Notes under the pieces: generated by a model | Told to the model about the DNA's origin: nothing | What the model saw: the letters and a program-made list of their open reading frames with translations, nothing else | Databases searched by the model: none | Shown here: piece after piece, positions 5,836-20,815 of the stretch | How positions within the stretch are numbered: the first letter of the stretch is position 1 | How the letters are laid out: every line of letters begins with the position of its first letter | NCBI GenBank assembly: GCA_964255285.1 | Contig: CAXUUL010000081.1 | Coordinates: 1-35,179 of the forward strand | DNA length: 35,179 bases | Direction: 5' to 3' | Source of the DNA: Ionaspis alba | Lineage: Eukaryota | Program-made: the position numbers and the translations under genes

Positions 5836-6164
5836 TGTAGGCTTCCACAACTGCCTTCACAGAGAGGGAAGAGGGGACGATAAGCCATTGATGAGAATCT
5901 TAGGTCAGTTGTTTACCTACAACGCTTGTGACAGAACAGAAACGCCGACGTCATGCTTGGCCGGCGATTTTTCCGATGTTGCGCCTCTAGAAATAATGCC
6001 GGGATAGGTAGAATTCTAGACTTTGCCTCTATGAGATTATTCTGCATGCACAAGACAACCAACGTCTTTCACCCCCAGCCGTTTCACGAAGGTCATAAGA
6101 CTCTCTTGACACGCCTGAGCTCCACAACTTTCATCTCATTACCACGGCCTGCGACACTCTCGCT

Positions 6165-7202
6165 ATGGGCTGGTTTTGGGCAGAATCCGCGGCTGGATCA
6201 AGACTGATAGCGCCCCATACTTTCCCTTCCTCAAATGCTACTCGTCCAGTAAGTTATGCAGCTTCTTGATTCTGCTGTGGCGAAGCTTATATTTACAGCC
6301 TGGGTGTCCGATGCATGCCTCAGATTCGATATCCATATCCGCTCCAAATAAAGGTACACTACCTTCGAGTGGTGGTTCCTGTCCGATCAAGGCCCCAAGC
6401 GACCGCATAGAACCACGCCCCTCTAGCACGTCAAGTTTGTCAAAATTGAATCCTCTTAACTATATGCCATCGAATTTGTCGCAAACGCGCGCTGTTCACC
6501 AAACCGTGGAGCTCCCCGTGGAGCGCGAGCTTTCTTCGATACCAAGAGGCGATGCTGATAGCAATTGGGAATATCCTTCGCCACAACAAATGTACAACGC
6601 CATGCTGCGGAAGGGATATGACGATACACCGCAAGATGCCGTGGAATCAATGGTAGCCGTACACAATTTCTTAAATGAAGGTGCTTGGGCTGAGATAGTC
6701 GAATGGGAGCGGAGGTTTGCGCGAGGGCTAGGCTATGGCTGGCAGGCCTGTAGGCACGGCGAGCAAGGATCAATGACCGGAGCTGGCATGATAGCGGACG
6801 AGGAAGATGTTCCGAGGCCACGGTTGCTTAGGTTTCAAGGCCGGCCTAACGAAATGACACCAAAAGCCAAAATATTACAAGCACTGGGCCAGGTCTATCC
6901 TTCAAAGTTTGGGTAAGCGCGCACAGCACCTTTTTATAGGGATGAACATTAATCTCAGCAGTGGGGAACCGCCGTTCGATCGTCATGACTGGTTCGTACA
7001 ACGGCAAACAGGAAGCAGCTCACCACAAGAGGTTCGATATGTCATCGATTATTATTCAGCGCCACCCGAGCCAACTGGAGAGCCTGTCTTCTATCTCGAC
7101 GTCAGGCCAGCCGTTGATAGACCGACTGCTGCCGTTGAAAGACTCATGAGGTGGGGAGGTGATGTTTGGCATAGGGCTAGTGGGGCCTCTACTCGAGCCT
7201 GA
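6165..7202 (+). CDS. CYC3: Cytochrome c heme lyase (holocytochrome-c synthase), ~312-313 aa, 3 exons
   Basis: Exons 6165-6248, 6299-6912 and 6959(or 6962)-7202. MGWFWA start, CPM/CPI heme-regulatory motifs, [50 protein letters not shown]. Similar to Neurospora cyt-2 as recalled. Confidence 0.96.
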
Positions 7203-7697
7203 GAGGTTTGTATAAGCCAATGTATTGTATAAGATATCCCGGATAATGGTCTTATTGTTTTCATGCGGAGAAACGGGTTGGGCTTGCGGAACATTCTGTT
7301 TTGTAATTTTAGATCATCTCTTCTCTCTAGACTTCTAGTCCTGTTGTCGAGTCGAGCTATGATGCTTGCCATATTTGGGTCATTCTTACCTGTTACGGAC
7401 CCCGGTTCCCGTTGCCGGTATCAGCGAAAAGAATTGAGAGATTGCCGATGATGCCAAGGCCAGATGACAATCTGATTCAGGGCTTATACCTCACTTCGAC
7501 CCCACAAATTATACGCGTGAAATTTCCATCTATATTGCCGTTTCTCCTCATCGTTCGTCTACTCGTCACTCCCTTCCCTCGTCAGTCAACCTTCATGGCG
7601 GCTATCTAACGAAGTTACTCTTTTCGTATCTACTTTTCGTTCCATTGTTTTCCTATAATTCTTCAACTTCTTTTCCATTAAGTCATCTTCGTTAGCC

Positions 7698-9076
7698 ATG
7701 AGCCGCATGTTTATCGATGCGTTGGAGTCGAACAAACATCCATCGCCGGAATGCCAATTCTGTGGCACCAGGTGCCTAGGTGACTGTGATGATCCGGATA
7801 CCTGTCGGACATGTTGGTCCGACCTCCACTGGGATGGCAGTTACACTAAAATGTATGTTCAGCCATACTGTAAGGCAGCTGACTGCTCGTGTGCTTGCCA
7901 TGTAGAAGACCGAGAGAGGAAGACTCGGAGATGGAGCTCCATTACCGGTAAGACCGAGGGTTATCTGCATCCCTTGGGACAATTGTTATACAATCGTCAA
8001 GGCATATTCCACTTCCTGAGACTACCTGGCGAGGTCAGAACTAAGATCTACAAGTGAGGTTAAAGACGATCTCCAACAAATCAATATACTGACGGGTGAG
8101 GAGGCTCTATTTCCGTCGATTTGGATCTGCTTGCAACAAAGGAACGTTCAGAGGCAGGATTCACACTGCGCTACTTCTGACAAACCGTCAAATCAACAGG
8201 GAAGCTCGCGATTACCCACTCTGTATCAATGAACTATGGTTTCAGAGCCCATCAAAGGCACTGGAATTCTTTGCTTCGGTGTTACACTATCAGCGTCACC
8301 TGGCCACCAACCTTCGCCTTGACGTGGACGACCTCGTGGTCTTCATGGGCGATGCGTTAGACCACTTGATCAAGCAACTCGGACATCTACAGGTCGAGCA
8401 TATCACCATTACCCTCAAAGGTGGTATCGTGAAAGAGTGGTTCGACAACTGGGACTGTTTCTTTGCACGATTCGAAGATCTAGTCCACCTCAAGTCCTTC
8501 AAGCTTCAGATTGGTTCTCGTGTGATCAAGGAGGCTGAAAAAGTGAGAATCCGTACGAGGATAGAGCAGAGCGTGCTCAAGCTACAGGAGTTGCAGCGCG
8601 CACGCGAAAGAAGTACGCTAGACGCCCGCTTTAAGTTTCGTGAACTTTCCATGTGGAACGATCTGTTGACCTTATTCATAGGAGACCAGCTCGCCAACCT
8701 CTCCGCAATCAAGGCGCATGCACATCGGTGCCAACCTCGCCTGGCAGGGCTTCAGACATTGGATCAAGAGTTCCAGCTTTTGCAGAGCAACCTCTTGATG
8801 AGGTATCGGCTACTGCACAATTACGCTGCGGCCTCCGGCGCTGGATTTCCCACTGTCTCGATTCGTCTTACAAAGGCTTATGAAGCTGCCAGAGCTGGCA
8901 AGGAGATAGACTTCGAGAGACTGTCTCTGTGGATCCAGGAGACTCTGGATGAGCAGACCGATGCTATGCTGAGCGCCAGGAGAGGTTTGAGGAGTCTTCC
9001 CTACAATGCTTTGTCAGGCTTCATAACTATGCTCTACGTTCGTATGATGATATCTCTATTCCTTCTAAGATGGTGA
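7698..9076 (+). CDS. Hypothetical protein with a Cys/His-rich N-terminus and an F-box-like 'FLRLPGEVRTKIY' motif (~420 aa)
   Basis: Exons 7698-8053, 8101-8612 and 8682-9076; introns 8054-8100 (branch TACTGAC) and 8613-8681. The LPxExRxxIY...LLxTNRQINREA pattern is typical of fungal F-box-like hypothetical proteins. The 3' end is uncertain (possible extra intron at ~9038-9099). Confidence 0.7.
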
Positions 9077-9700
9077 TGTTTGCTGACATGTTGAAGCAGA
9101 GTAGACAAGCGACATTGACGACCTAAGATTAGAGCGTTCACAGTCGAGAACAATGGTATTACTATGCTACACGAGATTGGCTGAAAGAGCATCGCCGCTA
9201 TGGAGTTTCTGTTAGCTTGCTTGAGGGCCTTGCTGAACAGCAGATCGATCTTGGATTGCGAATATTGCGTGCCATCTGTTCTAGCGCTATGTCGGGAATG
9301 TGCCCACCAAATCTGGGTTATTGCTAAAACTTCGTACTTAGCGTCTGTAGACCTTGTCTAGTATATTAGAAAGTCTTCCACAAACTTCCAGCAAGGATGC
9401 TACACTTCCGATAATGCGTATGCAGTAACCAACAGTGTGATGTTTCTCTTTCACAATTCAGTCGGCGGCTATCAGACAAAGATTGCTTGTTATGATTGTG
9501 ACACGATTCCACAGCATAAAACTGTGTATTCTTCTTCTATCTACCCGTAACGGAACCCTAAGCGTCTGTGGGCGGAATAACTCAAGGCCGGTCGTGCTTT
9601 ATGCCTCAACATGAAATTGTCACGCAGGCAATAGATGATTCAAAATGATGTCGTGAGACATGGGCCGGCTTGCTGATGGGCAACTCGAGTGGTAGGAGCG

Positions 9701-11739
9701 ATGGATTTCTCGCCTTTCAAAAAGCGGAAGCTCTCACCAACGAAGTCAGTCACGGTCGACGCGTCTGGAAACCTCCCGCCAGGTAGTAGCGTTGGGCGAC
9801 TTACACATCAGTCATCATACCTTTCACCCACCAAGTCGAGTCTTGCACGATTTAATCCGAGTCTACTACCGAGGGCGGTCTCAGCACAAACAGGTCTACA
9901 GGGGCAGGATGCACCAGAGGGTGAAGTTGAGAAAAAGAGGGAAGATCAAACACGTTCGGCGCGTCAGAGAAGTCTCAATCCTACGGCATTGCGGCCTTCC
10001 ACACCCAAAGACAAATTGGATGTACAGAATAGGACGAAACCGCGTGCGTCCACTGCTTCTCCGAGTAGGTATGGACAAGCTCAGGGCAAATCATCGGACA
10101 GGCCTCCCCGGCGCAAATCGCAAACTCCCCAGCCGGCACCTAGCTCCAGGCCATCATCGAGCTACGTCAATGCTGTGATTCCTGCATCGCCTCCGCAAAG
10201 AGCACAAGCAGCTCGAAAGAAGACACCAAATATAGCCAGTGATCAATTGGAGCATGAATTGCAGGAAGTTATGGCGCAGAGTACGGTCCAAGATTCACTA
10301 CCTGATGTGACCCCTACCTTGGATGAAAATGCTGCATCCGGTGAACCAGAACTACCTCCTACTCCTATACAGTTGGGCCTTGAGCAAGCGCCGACACCTC
10401 CCCAAGGATTGCTGTTCAGCAGTCCATCTCGCAGATTGAGAAAGAAGAAACCTTCTAGCGTCAGCTCCTCTCCGTTAAAGCCTAAGGATTCTCAGCCCGA
10501 CCTAGGCCTAGTCACGTCACAGACACAGGCAGCAGATCTTTCGACCGATGTCGAAGATCCCCCTGGAGACATCGAGCGGCGCAAAGATCCAGAAATACTG
10601 GATAGGCAGGCGACAATTGACCAATTGACCCTTCAATTGAAGGGACTTCAGGACGATGTTACACAACTGGAAAGGTGGCTCGAGCTGGCTGGGGACGCTG
10701 TTTTGTTTGATCAGCAGAGTCAGGAAGAAGCTGAAGAGTTACTGTATGTACCATAATTCTTACCCGTCAAGCAGTGCTAATTCTCAACCTCAGAGAAATA
10801 TTAACCTCCACCAATCCGTTCCACATGCCCGCGCCCCCAGCACCAAAACCGATATCAATATCGACACGTCTAGCAAACCTACTTCCTTTCTCTCGACGAC
10901 CACCTCCACCATCTCCTAAATCGGTCACCTCAAAATCAGCTCCACCGCGGCATCAGCCCATTCGACTGGAAGAGCCTCTTCCCTACCTCCAAGCCTTCAC
11001 ACCACTCGAGATATCCTCCATAGATACTCTAATCACCTCGTCCACGATTGACGAGCCCTATCTACAGCAACAACAGATCACTTTGACCTCCCCCGAACAT
11101 CTGCTTCGGGTCGAGTTGCAGCTCACCGTCGACGCCACAATAGAAGCCGTGCACTCGCTGTCTCTTGTGGCAATATCTCCATGGGCAGATTCGGAGCTCG
11201 GTACGTGGATCCGGAAGCAGGCTCCGAAGGGCGACATCTCCAGCATCGGCTGGGCATGCGGACGTTTTTGGGAAGTCGCCTCGATCAGAGCCACTTGCTG
11301 GAAGAGATGTCAGGAGAAATACAGCCATCTTCTTCCAAATGCTGAAATTCAAAGCGGCGATTTGGAGCATGTCGGGAAAGTGAGATCAGATGGCACGCGC
11401 GCTAGAACGGAGTCACCGAACGCAGGAATAGAAGCGGAGAGCATCAGCGGCTTGACGTCTGCTACTGGCCGTAACGTGCTTCTTGCTCACATGGGCAGCC
11501 AGAGCCTCCTTTTCACGCGTGCAGGGGTATCTCTTCTTATCGTTTGGCACATCTGCTTTGATTGGACGGGCGAAGTCGAGAATCATGTCTCTGCTTCTGG
11601 GGTTTTCCCGGCTTCATGGAGAAAAGCTGATAAAAGAGCTTCGTTGGGTAGGGTTGGTGAGCTATTTGAGAAGCTTGTGCAGGATAGAGGCGTGTCTCCA
11701 AGTGTCGAGGTAGTAGTCAGGTTGCTTTTCCCAGACTAG
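9701..11739 (+). CDS. Probable inner-kinetochore CENP-P/Ctf19/Fta2-like protein with a long disordered N-terminus (~662 aa, 2 exons)
   Basis: Exons 9701-10743 and 10794-11739 (GTATGT...GCTAAT...CAG). Ser/Pro-rich N-terminus, then a coiled coil (QLTLQLKGLQDDVTQLE), then a C-terminal region (CQEKYSHLL...LLIVWHICFDWTGEV...KADKRASLGRVGELFEKLV) resembling the CENP-P tandem-RWD tail. The CDS is secure; the family call is inferred. Confidence 0.65.
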
Positions 11740-12026
11740 GAGACTAGGAATTGGAAATGCAGATATGGGAGAGCTGCCGGTGAGCTTCAGTCTGACTTTG
11801 GAATCAGAGGAGGGCTTGGACGGTGAGGAGGAGTAAGCGGAAGTGTAGGCATTTACTGATAATTTAGCGAGGCGTCAACTGGTCGAGCTTTGCATTTGGG
11901 TACGATGGAAGAATTGCTGATCTAGGTTGGCGTGTCTGGGAACGAGGCGGAGAAACAGCCTCTCGCAGTGAATGGAATTGGTGAATGGTTGATATCGTCA
12001 GATTTCGCTATCGCTGGTGCACCCCC

Positions 12027-13557
12027 CTACATCAGAGAATCACTGTCCTCAGTGTCATCTCGTTTCCTCTTCAAATTTTTCGGTCGAGTGTCCTCGTTGT
12101 TTTCCAGAACAGGCGCCTCATCCTCACTCTCTGTCGATTCGGAGTCCTCGGAATCGGCACCATCACATGCTGGGAGAAGAATGTCAACACCTTCTACAGT
12201 CTCTTGCGTTTTCTCATACTCTTTCCACACCTTACGCAGGTACTGTGGAATCAAAAGACTGAAACCTCGTGACTCGAATGCGATGTTCTTATCGCTCCAG
12301 TCAATATCTAGAGGCGTTGTCCCGTGATATTGGTTGTTCTTGTGGGCAATGAAGGTGTTGGCAGCATTTTTGATGAGGACTCCATATTCGGCCAGGTAAA
12401 AGTTTCCTCCTTCAATGCTAGAGCCTTCATCACGTCTCGTCGTTAGGGATAGGACCCATGGTTCGGTGTCCTTTGACGTCTCTTTGTGACATGCTCGGGC
12501 ATACCGCGTAGAGCACAGGCCACTGGGAGGACCAAGAACAAGTCCAGATATCTCGTGGTCCTGGCCTTCTATGTTCAGAGACACAACGGGGTCCACAGGC
12601 AGGCCCTTCATGCTCCAGTCAAGCCCTGGCAGACCGTCCATCCCGGTCTCCATTTTCTGCACAATAATTGACGGAGCTTTTTTCTTGATGATATTCCAGA
12701 TCAAGGTGTGCGCTGAGCAGACGGCGTGATTATGGAGACTCAAGGCCTTCTGGCTATGCGAGCGGTTTGTCACGTTCCGTGCCCACGTGAAGACTTTGTT
12801 GTTCATTGACCCTGTGGTATACCCATATAGCGACATTTTCCCCATATCATCGCGCTGGCCAAAAGTTAGCAGACCTTATTGCGAAGAACATTCTATCTTG
12901 TACTTACCCGGACATCTCTTCCCCATTCGACCTGTTTTGCTGCTACAGAATCGAGCCAGGACAAGACCGCCTTATCTCCAACGAGGTTCCGAATGACAGC
13001 GCCTACAACATCTTTTGATTTCGTATCAACGATGATGCAGCTGGTGTCTTCACCGACTACCATTCGCCAGTCGATTTTATCAGAACGTCGCACGCTTTTG
13101 GCTGGCACCCTTTTGTCCGCTTTTTTGCCATTTAAACGCGTTTCCAGATGCGTGGCTGCAGACTCCGATTCTGGTGCCCAAAAATCTTTTGGAGGGATGA
13201 AGTCCTGCTTGCTGAGGCGCAAGAACTCGTACTCCGGAATAGATGACCTAAATTCCTCCGCCTCGTCCTCGGACCAATTCAGTGAGAGTGCGCGGCAAAG
13301 GTTAGGATCATCCAAAATGGCATTATTGCCGGGCAATGGCTCAGGTAGCCCTTCCGGAAACACAGCGCAGTGAGACTTCTGGGTCTTAAACTTGTCAATG
13401 ACGATCGATGCAGGTAATGTGGTACAATGTGTCTTATTTTTATCGTCTCATTCACGGTCTGTGGCGTCTTATCCCCTGAAGTATTGCTTTGTGCGCGTGC
13501 TGTCTCTACGCGTTTGCTTTTGCTCGGAAACACCTGTTTGCAATCTGTGGATGACAT
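12027..13557 (-). CDS. TET/JBP-like 2-oxoglutarate/Fe(II) dioxygenase (~476 aa, 3 exons)
   Basis: Exons 13557-13426, 13378-12908 and 12854-12027 (intron 1 GTACCA...ATTGAC...CAG, 47 nt, weaker; intron 2 GTAAGT...GCTAAC...CAG). Motifs: CHKE (HxE; His at 12488-12486), GGNFYLAEYGVLI, TFIAH...YHGTT (His at 12326-12324), ESRGFSL (Arg at 12269-12267), upstream GKMSLYGY. Acidic tail with KNLKRKR. Confidence 0.72.
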
Positions 13558-15173
13558 TTTGAGAATTGTTAAGCTTTGATCTGTACGGTAGAGCGTGTGC
13601 AGTTGCAGGTTGTGTGCGACTAAGGACAGTGGGATTTCCATAGCAATCTCGCCGAAGATGAAGGCTAAGGGTTCTCAACTCGGGTGTTTACCACACCGCG
13701 ATTCGGCTGCCTGACCGTACTTTGCTGACACCTGCCAGTACAGTGGTGCTGAAAGCAAAAGAAATCATGGCAGTTGACGAAAAATATCATATATATCGTC
13801 TTCGCCGACTTTGTTGCAAGCTGGGAAAGGGGTAAGCAGTTTTGGACTTGGTGGTTCAAATATCCAAGGAGCTCGAATAGTGCAAAGCTCATCTTCAAGC
13901 TTATTGTCATTGAACATGTGTTCTCATCCATCTTTCAGCCCGCTACCTTCTGGTAGAATGTCTTGACATCTCCTCAACACGAAGCCAATTCAAAGTTTTG
14001 TGCTCTGTTATTGTGCACATTGGATGTTGGCAGCAGAATGGCGTAACCTTGCTCTAGTTCCAATAGTCCTTCAAAGTTTTTGACCTCGAGACTTGATGCC
14101 TTCCATATTCGACTTACTTTGAAGGGACATAAGATCTTGATTGAGGCTTCATCGATCTAAAGCTTCTAGAAAGGACTTCTAAAAAATGCTGTGAGGAGAG
14201 ATGCAGGCATGTGATGTCAGGGGGGTTTTATTTACGCTCATATGGCAAATCCAGTTCTTGGAGGTTGGAAGAGCATAAATACAAGAAAATAAAGATTTCA
14301 TGAATTGCGTATGGATACATTGTTGCTGGATCAATATGAAGCGTAGAAGCAGAGGAGTAGTTAGTAGAGATATATATCCCTCCTCTGCCATTGTCATGCT
14401 TCGGAATACCAGCTGACATGTCTCAGCTTTCTTGCTAATACAGTTTCTGAGGCAGCAATCATCCACACCTATTCCAGAGTACGATCATGAGAATCTGGCA
14501 AATAGACAGACACCCTGCCACTGCTCTTTGTTGTGTCAAACTTCCATGCTCCCAATGTAAAGCTTCATGCATTTGTCTTCTAGCCTCCCATCCCGGGATC
14601 CTCACGTCCCATGCTCCCAGTCTCCACACCAAGATACTCCCAGCAGGGCTTGAAAGACCATGTACTGTCTGGTTATAGCATATCAGTATAGTTAGACGTA
14701 AGCACTCACTAGGACGGACAGTAGGACAAAAGGCTATGGCAATTGACGACTTGGTTCTATTTGATCATCAAGTAAGTGGTCAGAATTCCTATATGTGTTG
14801 AGGATAGTAGCGAAGCACATTGCCAGGCTCCATGACCTGATGCCGGCAGCCGAAGATTTCCCATGGCTCTGCCGGGCTTGAGGCTCTTTGATGTACAACT
14901 CAATTCTATAGTCTATTTATCTTCATTATTACTGTTCTCATTCGATTCAGAGGTAGGCAAGTGACATTTACAGTTCTGATATTGGCAGTCGACTCGATCT
15001 ATACAAACAAAGAGCCACCATAATTCCACCCAGATGGAACAACCATGCCAGCACCGACGCTAACCCTGGATGACATATGATACAGCCCCACCATCAATCC
15101 ATCATCATTCTCATGACCCATATACACATCCATAGCTTCCGAGATCTCCAAATCCTTCGTAAACATACAACCC

Positions 15174-17005
15174 TTATCCAGCAAACGACCCTCTCCTCCT
15201 CTCATCACCCGTGTGTGTAGTCCCCTCTGTGACCTCCGCAGTACTATGCCTGTTGCTCGGACCTCCCGCAAGGCCCTGATCCCACAACCGACTCAATCTC
15301 CCCTGCACTCTCCTCACCGTCCTCTCCCCAACCGCCATTCCCCCTTCTCTCTCGGCCTCACCACTCGCTCGATGAGCCGTCCGGACGCGCCTTAGCGCTG
15401 CAATTCGCTCATCGGGTGTGGCATCTCGCATACGACGTGCGTTGAGAGTGTGGTGAATGTAAAGCGCTAGCCCCCCACTGCGCCGACGATTTGTGTCCGT
15501 AGTACCTGGCTGGGATAGACTTGGAGAGCGAGGAGTGGATGCTGCGTCGTTGCTTGAATTGGAAACTAGGTAAGGGTTGGGAGAATGAGGCTCAGCGGTC
15601 GATGGTGGTTCATTCTGGGAGGCTGTGGGACGGAGATCAACGCGGCTATCAGAGATGTTAGCAAGGGGAAAGTTTCCTAGATTCAGAACGGGAGTGCCGG
15701 ACGAGCAAGATGACGAGGGAGGAGTCTTACCATAAGGGACAGGTACCCGAAACATTGAGGAGCCAGGGGTCGATGCATTCAGGGTGGAACTTGTGGTTGC
15801 AAGGGAGGAGGCGGATGTCTTGGCCCTTGACAAAGTCATCCGTACACACTGAGCAGGCGAGGCCATTCTCCGCGTTGCTTTCGAGTGTGCCACCTTTGGG
15901 AGCATCAGAGTCACCAATACCAGGAGCAGTCACCGTTGTGACTTCGTCGCTGGTGTTGTTTTCAGGAACCTCGCGTGCAGCGTGGCCTGATGAGGCTTCT
16001 GTATGCTCTGCCGGCGTATCTGGTGATGGAGTACGTTGGCTGTTTACACCGAGCTCAACGTCGCCATCATGTGCCGCATTCTTGTTTGCATCTTCATCTC
16101 GTTCGCCAAACTTGACAATCGGTATAGTCTCCAGCATTGCTCTTGCAATCCCTTTAGCCCTACTCTGCCTAGGCCGCCCTATGATCTGCCTGGGTCCATA
16201 GCGCTCGGGGTGTCGATGCGCTCTAATTGCACCAGTGACTATGATAATCAAAAAGAGTGCCGTGATAATTCCGGTAATGCTATAGAGAATGATCATGGCG
16301 ACTGCTGTTGTAGGAGAAGGACCAAGAGCATCAGTCGAGGCAGTATTGTTGTTAAGAGAAGACTGGTCTAAGCTGATTGTAGTCTGAGGAGGCGGTACTC
16401 CAGGTTGCTGGAATGCTTGCAGGAGACCATTTTTCAAGGTCATAGAGACGCTTGAATTCGTCGTTGTGTATATTGATTGATACATGAAGCCGTCGGAAAC
16501 GTCGAAGGTGCAAAAATTGGATATCGTGCTGTAGAGTATAATGGCTCCGCCGATATTCGATGACGGAGCAATCTTTTCAGCAGCATTTCTGACGACTCTC
16601 TTGACATCGACGTAGCCCTTGTAATCCCCTGGCTCACAACTTATGTACGCAAGAGCGCCGGGTTGAAGGCTTTGAGAATTGCTGTCATTTGTGAGCACGA
16701 GATTGCCGCTGATTTTGATAGACTGTGGGAGTCAGATCCTGGAGTCAAAGGTGGAAGAAGGTACGGGAGCTGACCTGTAGCTGCTGTATCTGATTGTGAA
16801 GCCCCGCGGCAGTCGTTAAAGGATCAACGTTGAACACGAGGTGTTTGGTCGTCACGGGTGAGTTGAGAACAAGCTGAGGACCGTTTGGATCCACTGGTAA
16901 CGCCGTACTATTTGATGGATGGATTTCTTGAGAGAATGCAAGGGCCAGATGCGAAAGGACAATCCATATCTTCGATCTCGGCCATTTCGAGGAATCCACC
17001 GCCAT
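15174..17005 (-). CDS. Membrane-anchored RING-H2 E3 ubiquitin ligase (PA-TM-RING / RNF13-Goliath-like), ~564 aa, 3 exons
   Basis: Exons 17005-16775, 16722-15731 and 15645-15174. Signal-like N-terminus, lumenal region (LAYISC...AIILYS...C), TM helix (AMIILYSITGIITALFLIIIVTGAI), and RING-H2 CSVCTDDF...[27 protein letters not shown]. Confidence 0.92.
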
Positions 17006-19089
17006 CTTCTCAACGTTGCTGGTGGGTCAACACAGGGCTGGAGAAGATACGGTCGTGGGGTTGAATCCTAGGGCTAATCCATGAGTATGTCGCGATTTCT
17101 TGATCAAGTCGAACAGATCGCCACCGCGTATGGGGAGAGATATCAGAGAACCTCTCTAGCAACTTATACAAGCTGAAGCAAGGTATTGTGTAGAGATTGG
17201 CCGCCAAGTAGGTAGTAACACGATTGCACAAGACCAGCGGTCGTCAAGTAGTATAGTAGTATCGATCTAACGCCATAGCCCAGCAGAGTAGCTGTCGCCA
17301 CGGCCCATCTCACCCCCAATGGGGATTTGCAAGACTGGAGGTGTGGGAGAACGATGACATGCTAGAGTCAGATGCTCCAATGGGATCAGCACCAAGACAC
17401 GGAAGACACGGCTTACTATCACTCGAAGTGTCCTGGACCCTCGATGGCCTCGTCCCTGCTGGGGTACCCCGGAAGCCGAAGCTGCCGATGAATCAGCCCT
17501 AAAGGGGTGGCATAGCTAAAGATGACGACGCTCCTGAAAGGATTCCAAATGCTGCTTATCCCCAGTTGAAGACTTGGGCGTCCGACAAATATTAGCTTAT
17601 TAGAGATTCCGAAAGTCAGACAGCGGCCGGCTACAGTCCAGCCTCCTAACATGTGGAGCCTGTTCGTCCTTGTGGATGTAGAGCCGATCAGGGTAAGGCC
17701 AGCCTGTTCCTGTGCCTTCTATTTCATTTCTCGTCAGCGTCTATTTCGTGCTTGTTATCCTAGAGCTCGGTCGACAAACTCTCCTGTCCAGCTCGATCAT
17801 GCTCTACGAGCCGCGTGGCTTGACTCGTTTTGCACAGCCGCTGCTATAGACCTAGCTTTGTAACGTCGAAACTCCACCTCTTCCCTGTCCACCAATGCAC
17901 GATGCCCAGACCTTAATTTGTCATGTCCACTCTGCAAGATAAGTCCAATTTCATATCTCGTCAATGATTACCGGTGCGAAGAGTCGCTTCGCGGTCTCTT
18001 ACACGTTCAGATGCTCCATGCGGCCAGCCGCAGGCTGACTGATATGTGGCGGTGTTTCTCTATCCCGGATTGGACTCCTGCGGCTCCGTGTGTTAAAAGT
18101 TGACACTGTGCTTTATGTCTCACAGTACATGTTCTGTGACCTGAATAACACCACATGTCAGCGGAGTATTGACGAGTGACACTGCAAAAAGATTCAAGCG
18201 GATTTCTTTTCCAAGCTTTAGAAACAATAACCTTGAATACAATGTACAAATTTCTTGACGATGTTCCGGGAGTCCTGTCTGAGAAGCTGTGGCTGAAACA
18301 ATGCAAAGAAGACATGTTTAGAGATTCCCGTCATACAAAGACACTGGAATTTACAACCGCAGCATGCTCCAACCCATCGTTTCAACAAATATCTTTCTGG
18401 CATGCTTGTACTTGCAGGAGACCACTGGAACGCAGTCCAGCTATGAGTGCCAATCTACCCAATTGTCCACCATTCATTGGTGTCATCAAGCAAGCTTCCA
18501 GACGCTGGCACGCTTTGTATTACCCACAATATGCAGAAAGCCGGTCCTGGATAGACTCATCCTAGATACCACGGGATCTGTCTATGTCGTTAACCGTTCA
18601 AAGGTTGATAAGTCTCAAGGCACGATCGTTGATCTCTGTTCTCATCCCAATAGATATTACGCTGCAGAGACCATCAACACATTCTATACATCGTCCAGTT
18701 GTTATTCAATGGTGGCTGTCGTGCAAGTTCAAGATTCGTCAGGGTGTTATTAAATGGGTCAATGATGTTGCTGCTGCTCAACGTTGGCCTGCAAAGAAGG
18801 CCTAGAAAGATGAAGGGCTTCGAAAAATTGGCAATATCGACTACGATGCGGGCGGTCTAGTAAACACCCACCTCATTTTCAACACACCAACCTCTACATC
18901 TCTTCACAACAACAACGCCACAACTGATCTACAAATACATCAGTCTACACTCTCTCCACTATCGCGCATTCGCTACTCTTGCTCGTTTCATTCTCTCTAT
19001 TAACTTCCTTCCAACCCCTTCAGGGAACCCCTTTTACCGGTCGCAAAAGATCTGCTTTACCGGTCGGCAAGGTAAACAGTAAGGTCAAG

Positions 19090-20815
19090 ATGTTTCACTT
19101 AATCGTGCGCGTCTTCTTTGGACTCCTCCTTGCCCAAGCAGCCATCAGTACCTTCGATGTACGCGTGAATACCAGTCTGGATGTCGGATTTCTCGGTGTT
19201 GCGGTCGGACGTTCATCTTTGATGAACGTCAGTACCATCAGCGTTGGCCACGGATTCACTGCTCCCTACTACCGCAACACTACTGCAGGAGCAGTCTGGG
19301 TCGTTCCTGACAGCCCATTCGACATTGGCGCTCGTTCTATGTCTTGTGAATGCTTTGAGAGCAACGGTAAGTCGAGCAGGTATAGGGGTTTTACCTTGGC
19401 ATAGACACTGATAAAAGAAATCAAACAGCTACTTGCTGCATGCCAGCGTCAACCACCATCGCTCCCTTCTGTATTGATAAGGAATCGACTTGCTGTGGGA
19501 ATACCTACTGCAAAACCGGTGAAAAATGCTGTGATGGCGGTTGTTGTCCGATCGTAAGTGAAGCCGTCACATGCTGCACAGTACCTTTTATACAATCAAG
19601 TGGCGCTTTTTTTATCTGCGCTCGATACAAATTCTGTTTAGCCATTAGTGCTTCGGCTGACATGATTGGCAGGATACTTCTTGCATTTCTTCTGGAGCTC
19701 GACAGGGCTGCTGTGCAAATGGCATGACTTGTACCAGCCAAGCTAAATGTCATGACCACGAATCTACCAACTGTGCAAGCAACAGTTCTACCCCAAGCGA
19801 CTGCTGCCCAGTGGAAGTACCAATCTGTCAATCATTGGGGTCAGGCGCAGGATGCTATGCGTCAACCATTCAGAAATCCGTGGCAAGTGATACAACTGGC
19901 ACGGTAGCAATGCAGTCAGCTTCTGGCGCGGCAGTGGCTTCTGTAGGATCTGATGCTGGTTTTGTGGGTGTCGAGACTCCAAGCGTGCCCACGGACCTCG
20001 GACTCACCCCACCAAAGGCTGCTCCAAGTCTGCCTACAGACCTTGGACTCACCCCCCCAAAGGCTGCTTCAAGTCTGCCCACAGACATCGGACTCATCCC
20101 ACCACAGGCAGATCCCAGTGTGCCTACAGAACTCGGACTCACCCCGCCAAAAGCACATCTGCCTCTAATGACCGCTACATCCACAGTCATCAAAACTCTT
20201 TCCCTAGTAGCCAACTCTGGATATCTCACAGCTGTCTTTCCGACCACCGATTCGTTCACTGTGTCTTCACCTCCGATGGTCAATATCGACACTATATGGG
20301 AAATAGTTCAAGAAACGGTCAGTATCCATACTACTACACCGGCTTCGACTGCATGGGATGCAAATACGCGAATTGTCCCACTTATTGACACTCCTGAAAC
20401 CGCACTTTGCTATGATTCTAAGCTGTCGACAAATCTACCCTGTTCTACTTCCACTGCATGGGACGCGAATACAAAGGTAGTCCCGCTCATCGATACTCCC
20501 GGGAGTGCACTGTGCTGGAACCATCAGTTGCAGACGAACCTTCCCTGCTCGACATCGACTACCCTCACTTCAGACTCTCCTGACGCAACTTCTTCGGATA
20601 GTGCTGGCTTCGATCCTCCTGGTGTGCTAATGGTCGGTGTTGGCTCTACCGCAAATAGAGCCAACAATCCCATCGGCAATTTCTTCACCTCGATCCTTCC
20701 CCGTCGTGAGGTCCCGCGTATGAAGCAGGATCTCTCTGTTGGCAACGGTGCTGTCGGATGGGTTTGGACCAAGGTGTCGAAGGCAATGAGTATTGGTGGA
20801 CGTCGTGCTGCTTAA
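19090..20815 (+). CDS. Secreted Cys-rich, Ser/Thr/Pro-rich repeat protein of unknown function (~514 aa, 3 exons)
   Basis: Exons 19090-19366, 19429-19553 and 19673-20815 join in frame. Signal peptide MFHLIVRVFFGLLLAQAAIS, a region with repeated CC pairs, and two internal repeat arrays. Confidence 0.8.
19979..20158 (+). repeat. Coding tandem repeat, 4 x 45 bp (PS[V/L]PT[D/E][L/I]GL[T/I]PP[K/Q]Ax)
   Basis: Units start at 19979, 20024, 20069 and 20114. Confidence 0.92.
20345..20554 (+). repeat. Coding tandem repeat, 2 x 105 bp (STAWDANTxxVPLIDTPxxALC...L.TNLPCST)
   Basis: Units start at 20345 and 20450; the amino acids are largely conserved while the codons have diverged. Confidence 0.9.

Follow-up and report, generated by a model that had tools for sequence, protein, structure and literature searches.

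The stretch of DNA analysed here (35,179 nucleotides (nt), positions 1 to 35,179 of contig CAXUUL010000081.1 from Ionaspis alba, assembly GCA_964255285.1) is referred to as the window. It carries on its minus strand, from 13557 to 12027, an intact gene with three exons and a product of 470 amino acids (aa), as derived from the DNA, the frame list and the splice signals. We propose that this gene encodes an Fe(II)/2-oxoglutarate (2OG) dioxygenase of the TET/JBP superfamily that belongs to the HxE branch, falls into a separate clade whose named members are lichen-forming fungi, stands as one intact gene between ordinary ones and oxidises a nucleic-acid base, a reading which we consider fairly probable. 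To our knowledge, active oxidation of the 5-methylcytosine (5mC) methyl group is known from TET/JBP enzymes alone, and in fungi we know of them almost solely as transposon cargo in mushrooms, rusts and Pezizales. An earlier note made from the sequence had interpreted the same interval as a stand-alone TET/JBP-like dioxygenase of an ascomycete, and this interpretation as a whole is largely supported. The ends given there are exact, with the ATG at 13557 and the stop codon at 12029..12027 on the minus strand. The spliced, intron-bearing reading frame was likewise found, while its size of ~476 aa has to be corrected to the 470 aa of our model. The gene model is composed as follows:

13557..13456, minus strand: exon 1 (inferred), 34 aa, with the ATG at 13557
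13455..13391, minus strand: intron 1, 65 nt, GTGAAT..AAG
13390..12908, minus strand: exon 2, 161 aa, N-terminal part of the TET-like domain
12907..12855, minus strand: intron 2, 53 nt, GTAAGT..CTAAC..CAG, textbook fungal signals
12854..12030, minus strand: exon 3, 275 aa, double-stranded beta-helix core and acidic tail
12029..12027, minus strand: stop codon at the end of exon 3

The junction of exons 2 and 3 is confirmed by four relatives (P0156, P0159, P0012 and P0014), as the spliced protein aligns with each of them over this position without a gap. The best-aligned relative is P0156 (463 aa, 44% identity, pairwise E 6e-114), which is aligned from residue 45 onward. Exon 1 was added because the conserved N-terminal region requires a start codon. 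It is the sole upstream frame with an ATG that joins exon 2 in phase 0 via a GT..AG intron, and homology gives it no confirmation since the N-termini of the relatives diverge. The acceptor of intron 1 is uncertain, with four candidate in-frame AGs (13391, 13385, 13379 and 13376), of which the model uses the first (13391). Exon 2 has no Pfam match and is assigned to the TET-like domain by the model of P0156 and its structural alignments described below. Splicing and expression of the gene are predictions derived from the DNA and from homology.

Homologues were collected with phmmer in an exhaustive scan of 1.84 billion representative proteins using exon 3 as query. At E<=1e-3 the scan returned 276 homologues, a number that falls to 109 at E<=1e-10 and to 7 at E<=1e-30. 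Many of them are 450-500 aa long and carry the matched region in their C-terminal half. Word-indexed protein searches gave 3 matches with exon 3 alone and 4 with the alignment, nothing of which lay beyond the phmmer set, and a metagenome scan for related loci yielded a single 1.1-kb contig (L001) devoid of context. Of 40 homologues submitted to Pfam, 38 have no family at E<=0.01, one shows a weak PF20515 match and one has DUF4139/DUF4140, which are unrelated domains. Judged by these searches the homologue family is large and real and is not captured by curated models. The full-text literature search returned no paper on PF20515 (2OG-FeII_Oxy_6).

All motifs listed in the earlier note are present in the translated gene, from the GKMSLYGY motif to the acidic tail with its basic patch:

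12819..12842, minus strand: GKMSLYGY motif, residues 200-207
12480..12488, minus strand: H318-K-E320, predicted HxE metal-binding motif (CHKE = residues 317-320)
12378..12410, minus strand: GGNFYLAEYGV block, residues 344-354
12318..12326, minus strand: H372-G-T, predicted distal metal-binding His
12267..12269, minus strand: R391 in ESRGFS, candidate 2-oxoglutarate-binding Arg (putative role)
12060..12080, minus strand: KNLKRKR basic patch, resembling a nuclear localisation signal, in the acidic disordered C-terminal tail, residues 454-460

Given the 276 homologues at E<=1e-3 these motifs are not a product of chance. Their conservation was counted in an alignment of 92 sequences (A1). The first His of the triad (H318) is kept in 89/92, the position of E320 holds Glu in 83 and Asp in 5, and the distal His (H372) is kept in 88, followed by G in 85 and by T in 86. 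A complete triad (H, E or D, H) is found in 84/92 homologues and in all 16 members of the clade of the window protein, the latter counted in. In the GGNFYLAEYGV block G149 and F152 (exon-3 numbering) are invariant (92/92), and in the region of GKMSLYGY the glycines at exon-3 positions 11 and 15 are each kept in 85/92. Two further basic positions stand out, namely R315, which precedes the first His by three residues (R or K in 86/92), and R336 (kept in 72/92). The KNLKRKR tail is predicted with a local distance difference test score (pLDDT) of about 50 and is not conserved among relatives. By its pattern the KRKR patch would fit nuclear import, and a nuclear localisation of the protein is suggested on this ground.

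The fold of exon 3 was predicted with AlphaFold using A1 (pLDDT 85.9, predicted template modelling score (pTM) 0.77). The model exhibits strands as in a double-stranded beta-helix, with the HxE motif at the end of strand 120-123, the HGT motif forming strand 177-179 and RGFS on the next strand (195-201). A Foldseek search against the PDB gave 22 matches at E<=1e-3, whereby the entries listed down to rank 20 all belong to the TET family and AlkB-type repair enzymes come after; the E-values are 8e-6 for CMD1, 1.4e-4 for TET2, 1.9e-4 for CcTet and 5.6e-4 for NgTET1. A scan of 48,161 chains with VIA-align, which is independent of Foldseek, found four chains with Z>=8: NgTET1 (10.8, 167 aligned residues), TET2 (10.7, 180 aligned), CMD1 (9.5, 177 aligned) and PolD (8.5).

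For the full-length fold we took the model of P0156, the closest full-length relative (44% identical), to stand in for the window protein. It shows a single compact domain from ~55 to 430 (pLDDT 86.1, pTM 0.84). In Foldseek the entries listed down to rank 22 all belong to the TET family, with CcTet as best match (2e-9). VIA-align gave Z 17.8 for TET2 (275 aligned residues), 16.7 for CMD1, 16.5 for NgTET1 and 14.1-14.6 for CcTet, and the top 16 entries are all of the TET family. With NgTET1, 224-226 of about 266 residues are aligned. The alignments to both TET2 and NgTET1 begin at model residue 67, and it is this extent which places the exon 2 region within the TET-like domain. The comparison with NgTET1 and CcTet proposed in the earlier note therefore leads to TET-family structures at the top of the searches, and not to small-molecule dioxygenases or to a fold other than the beta-helix.

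NgTET1, human TET2 and the Coprinopsis enzyme CcTet are 5mC oxidases, of which CcTet also acts on N6-methyladenine (6mA). The predicted protein shares with them the 2-His-1-carboxylate triad on a double-stranded beta-helix, and they are among its best structural matches. In contrast, identity to these enzymes is 8-14% with no match by sequence or profile, the window protein has Glu in place of Asp, and it is devoid of a Cys-rich or CXXC region. Exon 3 gave noise only against the PDB sequences (dysferlin at E about 0.5). As no PDB sequence is matched, the link to characterised TETs rests on the fold together with the published HHpred and AlphaFold comparisons of a fungal group to which the window protein is related.

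This group is the PE type. Kojima (2025, PMC12730594) distinguishes three types of transposon-borne fungal TET/JBP dioxygenases, whose PE type, published in December 2025, occurs in Pezizales (on Helitron and IS3EU elements) and in Agaricales. The type is defined by residues and, according to section 3.4 of that paper, has HxE in place of HxD as its hallmark. The earlier note had taken Glu for Asp as a peculiarity of the copy in the window; it is instead a hallmark of the whole PE type. The KDZ-linked expansions of fungal TET/JBP genes, which the note had also mentioned, appear in the introduction of the same paper. There the PE type is tied to CMD1, NgTET, CcTET and TET2 solely via HHpred and AlphaFold comparisons.

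Two homologues connect the window protein with this type. P0014 from Morchella matches exon 3 with E 3.4e-25 and the spliced window protein with a pairwise E of 2e-47 (residues 98-431, 29% identity over 343 aligned positions). Compared by eye only, its identity to the PE TET domain that Table S1 (PMC12730594) gives for Helitron-1_MoIm is ~95%. P0029 from Sphaerosporella brunnea matches exon 3 with E 1.3e-19 and agrees, again by eye only, with the domain of Helitron-1_SpBr in the same table. Agaricomycete homologues were found in Leucoagaricus, Amanita, Paramarasmius, Pluteus, Suillus, Rhodofomes and Ephemerocybe. The names recovered for the homologues show the taxa given for the PE type by Kojima. 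Via P0014 and P0029 the window protein is, on the level of sequence, a homologue of the PE type. With the TET domain of Helitron-1_MoIm (Morchella importuna) it shares HxE, the distal HGT, the GG.F block, a length of about 470 aa and the position of the core in the C-terminal half, whereas the window gene lies outside any recognisable transposon. Taken together, sequence homology to the PE type and fold searches topped solely by TET-family structures support the assignment as a TET/JBP-like dioxygenase.

The closest named relatives are all lichen-forming ascomycetes (Ptychographa, three Xylographa species, Trapelia, Circinaria, Lepraria, Candelaria, Villophora and Wetmoreana). A maximum-likelihood tree was built in a quick run from 32 rows and 380 columns, unrooted and with no outgroup. 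It comprises 22 organism-named proteins, 9 unnamed top matches and the spliced window protein; other homologues were left out. A split with a support of 98 (Shimodaira-Hasegawa-like approximate likelihood ratio test, SH-aLRT) separates 17 rows from 15. On the side of 17 rows are the window protein, all 9 named lichen-fungus proteins and 7 unnamed ones; on the other are 2 Pezizales Helitron copies, 11 proteins of Basidiomycota and 2 unnamed ones. In this tree of proteins the window gene thus falls into a well-supported clade, separate from the transposon-borne copies of Pezizales and Agaricomycetes. As the tree is unrooted and lacks an outgroup, it indicates a distinct clade and not the direction of a transfer, and the lichen-fungus clade may lie either inside or beside the PE type.

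The TET/JBP superfamily and the PE type are known already. New are the lichen-forming ascomycetes as the named members of a clade and the transposon-free setting of the present copy. Among the full-text matches listed, other papers' supplements aside, we found no published work on TET-like enzymes of Lecanoromycetes or lichens. In Table S1 of Kojima (PMC12730594) the Ascomycota are represented by Pezizomycetes only, and Lecanoromycetes are absent from that table.

As all PE-type copies studied by Kojima are transposon-borne (PMC12730594), the window gene could also be transposon cargo or a recent relic, with element ends and transposase degraded or lying outside the recognised parts. We evaluated its setting within the window. 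Among the 23 open reading frames (ORFs) of at least 150 aa, 10 have a Pfam family and none has a transposase or Helitron family. The families of the neighbours are those of an MFS sugar transporter, an ABC1 kinase, a cytochrome c haem lyase, a RING finger protein, a YggS-like pyridoxal phosphate (PLP) protein, an MscS/EF-hand channel, a C2H2 zinc finger protein and a Cid1-type poly(A) polymerase. The TET-like gene has the RING-finger gene at 15177-16731 on one side and an ORF ending at 11739 on the other. It is not bracketed by inverted or direct repeats, and within the 35 kb of the window tblastn recovers its three exons and no further copy. The guanine-cytosine (GC) content of the TET-like gene is 0.494, which equals the window mean, and its indices of repeat-induced point mutation (RIP) are 0.55 and 1.27; by these values the gene is not RIP-like. 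Contig depth in the run containing the window is 106-117 over the gene and 113-117 over the flanks, which argues against a recently amplified repeat, contig depth being a crude measure. The absence of a transposase and the housekeeping-type neighbours claimed in the earlier note are accordingly borne out within the window by ORFs, repeats, copy search and RIP indices.

The relatives point in the same direction. In the tree the lichen-fungus proteins are split off from the transposon copies as a clade (SH-aLRT 98), and each named species is represented by one protein in their 90% clusters, in contrast to 2-3 per genome in the Morchella cluster (for P0014, 3 copies of M. importuna and 2 of M. 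sextelata). In favour of cargo remains a non-coding stretch of ~1.6 kb with a GC content of 0.443 upstream of the gene (13558-15170). To look for the locus in relatives, contigs of three runs were compared with positions 6000-20000 of the window. The second run, from the same study, holds identical low-depth fragments which probably stem from the same organism and hence are not independent. At >=80%, the main organisms of these second and third runs matched no more than parts of the genes for the haem lyase and the RING finger protein, and no contig of a relative bridging the TET-like gene was found among the three runs. On balance we regard an origin as cargo or recent relic as improbable, and the gene may be a host gene.

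If the gene encodes a TET-like dioxygenase of the HxE branch as proposed, its reaction may be envisaged as follows. Fe(II) would be bound by H318, E320 and H372. The distal carboxylate of 2-oxoglutarate would be held by R391 in the strand that follows the distal His, possibly with help from the well-conserved R315. Oxidation would take place on the methyl group of a methylated base flipped out of nucleic acid, and the most probable such base is 5mC in DNA. The substrate is the least certain step of this scheme; thymine, 6mA or an adduct chemistry like that of CMD1 may take its place.

In 2OG oxygenases an Arg on the strand after the distal His binds 2-oxoglutarate. R391 is found in the window protein and in all 8 of its closest relatives in A1, while T, W, Y, I, S or G takes its place in remoter members of the clade and in the copies from Morchella and Sphaerosporella. 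Where the close clade of the window protein has Arg after the distal His, the copies from these two fungi carry Ile or Leu. Of the residues H, E, H and R pointed out in the earlier note, the triad is conserved in the family and the Arg of ESRGFS in the close clade only. R391 and/or R315 are our candidates for the residue holding 2-oxoglutarate.

A separate observation concerns exon-3 positions 17 and 196. R or K at position 196 occurs in 10 of the 20 sequences devoid of R/K at position 17 and in 14 of the 72 that possess it, in counts which take no account of relatedness. This alternation might reflect alternative modes of 2-oxoglutarate binding.

Several points weigh against the proposed TET/JBP dioxygenase. 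Family-wide the position of R391 holds Arg in only 22/92 sequences, and the family Arg of G-Y-S-A-G-x-R (exon-3 position 17, 70/92) is Met in the window protein. Curated models give little: exon 3 matches PF20515 below threshold in the region of the distal His (E 0.023, 15.2 bits at a cut-off of 27), and none of the 92 members of A1 matches PF12851 (Tet_JBP) at E<=1. The profile of A1 has no match among PDB sequences at E<=10. Moreover, in the VIA-align scan of exon 3 CcTet reaches Z 7.8 and is found there among generic cupins at 7-8, and with P0156 the next family, PHD2, follows at Z 12.3, so that generic 2OG oxygenases score fairly high. Members of the PE type have no measured activity according to section 4.2 of Kojima (PMC12730594), and the host-gene ('domesticated') status is drawn from a single locus.

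The Pfam check suggested in the earlier note on TET/JBP and Tet-like profiles consequently produced no model above threshold. The sole recurring Pfam signal in A1 is PF20515, with 8/92 members matching at E<=1, the best at 0.0015 and all below the gathering cut-off. Look-alikes listed in the protein atlas include clusters of both PF20515 and PF12851.

With no match to characterised TETs on the sequence level, a 2OG oxygenase with TET-like fold might also act on a protein or a small molecule instead of nucleic acid. The sizeable scores of PolD (Z 8.5), prolyl hydroxylases (12.3) and further small-molecule oxygenases fit this possibility, and no DNA-binding domain was detected in the window protein by Pfam. 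It is opposed by the structures at the very top, as the best 16 with P0156 and the best 3 with exon 3 are all nucleic-acid-modifying TETs and the match covers 85% of the minimal chain of NgTET1. In addition, a chromodomain is present in the homologue P0074 (E 5e-7), and DNA transposons carry the related branch, as would suit an enzyme acting on DNA (PMC12730594). We give a protein or small-molecule substrate very little chance.

More weight is to be given to an enzyme of TET fold with another chemistry on nucleic acid, be it thymine hydroxylation as in JBP, 6mA demethylation as in CcTet or the use of a co-substrate other than 2OG as in CMD1. CMD1 of Chlamydomonas, a TET homologue, uses vitamin C to make 5-glyceryl-methylcytosine. 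In Foldseek it is the best match of the model of the window's own exon 3 (8e-6), and it reaches Z 9.5 with exon 3 and 16.7 with P0156. Furthermore 70/92 sequences lack the canonical Arg behind the distal His, which permits unusual co-substrate binding in much of the family, and Kojima leaves further activities of the PE type open (sections 3.4 and 4.2, PMC12730594). The window protein itself, however, has R391 and all three predicted metal ligands, and TET2 and NgTET1 score at least as high as CMD1. CMD1 differs by chains of about 860 residues, much larger than the window protein, at 13-16% identity; an indication of its co-substrate was not seen in the window protein. An adjoining glycosyltransferase or other partner gene is likewise absent. 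Such a chemistry is hence unlikely for the window protein, and oxidation of a methylated base by a TET-like enzyme using 2OG is the reading we prefer.

Going further, lichen-forming ascomycetes may harbour a vertically inherited, transposon-free clade of HxE TET-like enzymes, in which a domesticated or ancestral host version of the enzyme used by transposons of Pezizales and mushrooms serves as nuclear modifier of 5mC or another base, possibly by non-canonical chemistry. We put this forward tentatively, as a possibility that is more doubtful than the assignment of the gene itself. If true, it would imply an undescribed pathway of active DNA demethylation or base hypermodification in Pezizomycotina outside Pezizales. 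A conserved intact copy outside transposons in a clade with lichen fungi as its named members would widen the range of the HxE branch, and it would offer a simple single-gene system for asking what this uncharacterised branch does. It would also address direction, i.e. whether a host recruited the gene or a transposon captured a host gene.

Some homologues contain additional domains. P0074 (425 aa) has a C-terminal chromodomain (PF00385, residues 368-412, E 5.1e-7, 29.9 bits at a cut-off of 25.1) and is the only one of the 92 homologues with a chromodomain above threshold. It represents either a fusion with a chromatin reader or a merged gene model, and as side evidence it points weakly to chromatin. 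In P0058 (709 aa) the TET-like domain is followed by DUF4140/DUF4139 (E 2.7e-9 and 8.9e-16), which is probably a fused model of two adjoining genes. P0012, P0024 and P0035 (from Candelaria, Villophora and Wetmoreana) share a long N-terminal extension of 150-250 residues with spaced Trp. A Myb/SANT-like nature of this extension was considered and rejected, as matches are below threshold in P0012 only (E 0.047 and 0.16), there are none in P0024 and P0035, and P0024 has no PDB match.

Three observations were made next to the TET-like gene. Its convergent neighbour on the plus strand (9677-11739) consists of two overlapping frames with no Pfam family, which are probably one spliced gene. Look-alikes in the protein atlas are hypothetical proteins of Ascomycota, and leads to CENP-O/CENP-P are weak (0.83-0.85, below the trust level). 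The segment 7868-9268, which holds an ORF on the plus strand (8093-9076, no Pfam family), shows a summed depth of 143-207 compared to about 113-117 elsewhere in the same run; this suggests a segment repeated or shared with other sequence in the sample. Finally, at position 7356 the contigs of the source run (depth 104.8/104.8) and of the second run are devoid of 8 bases of the window; the site is intergenic or intronic, and the difference is one of assembly or strain.

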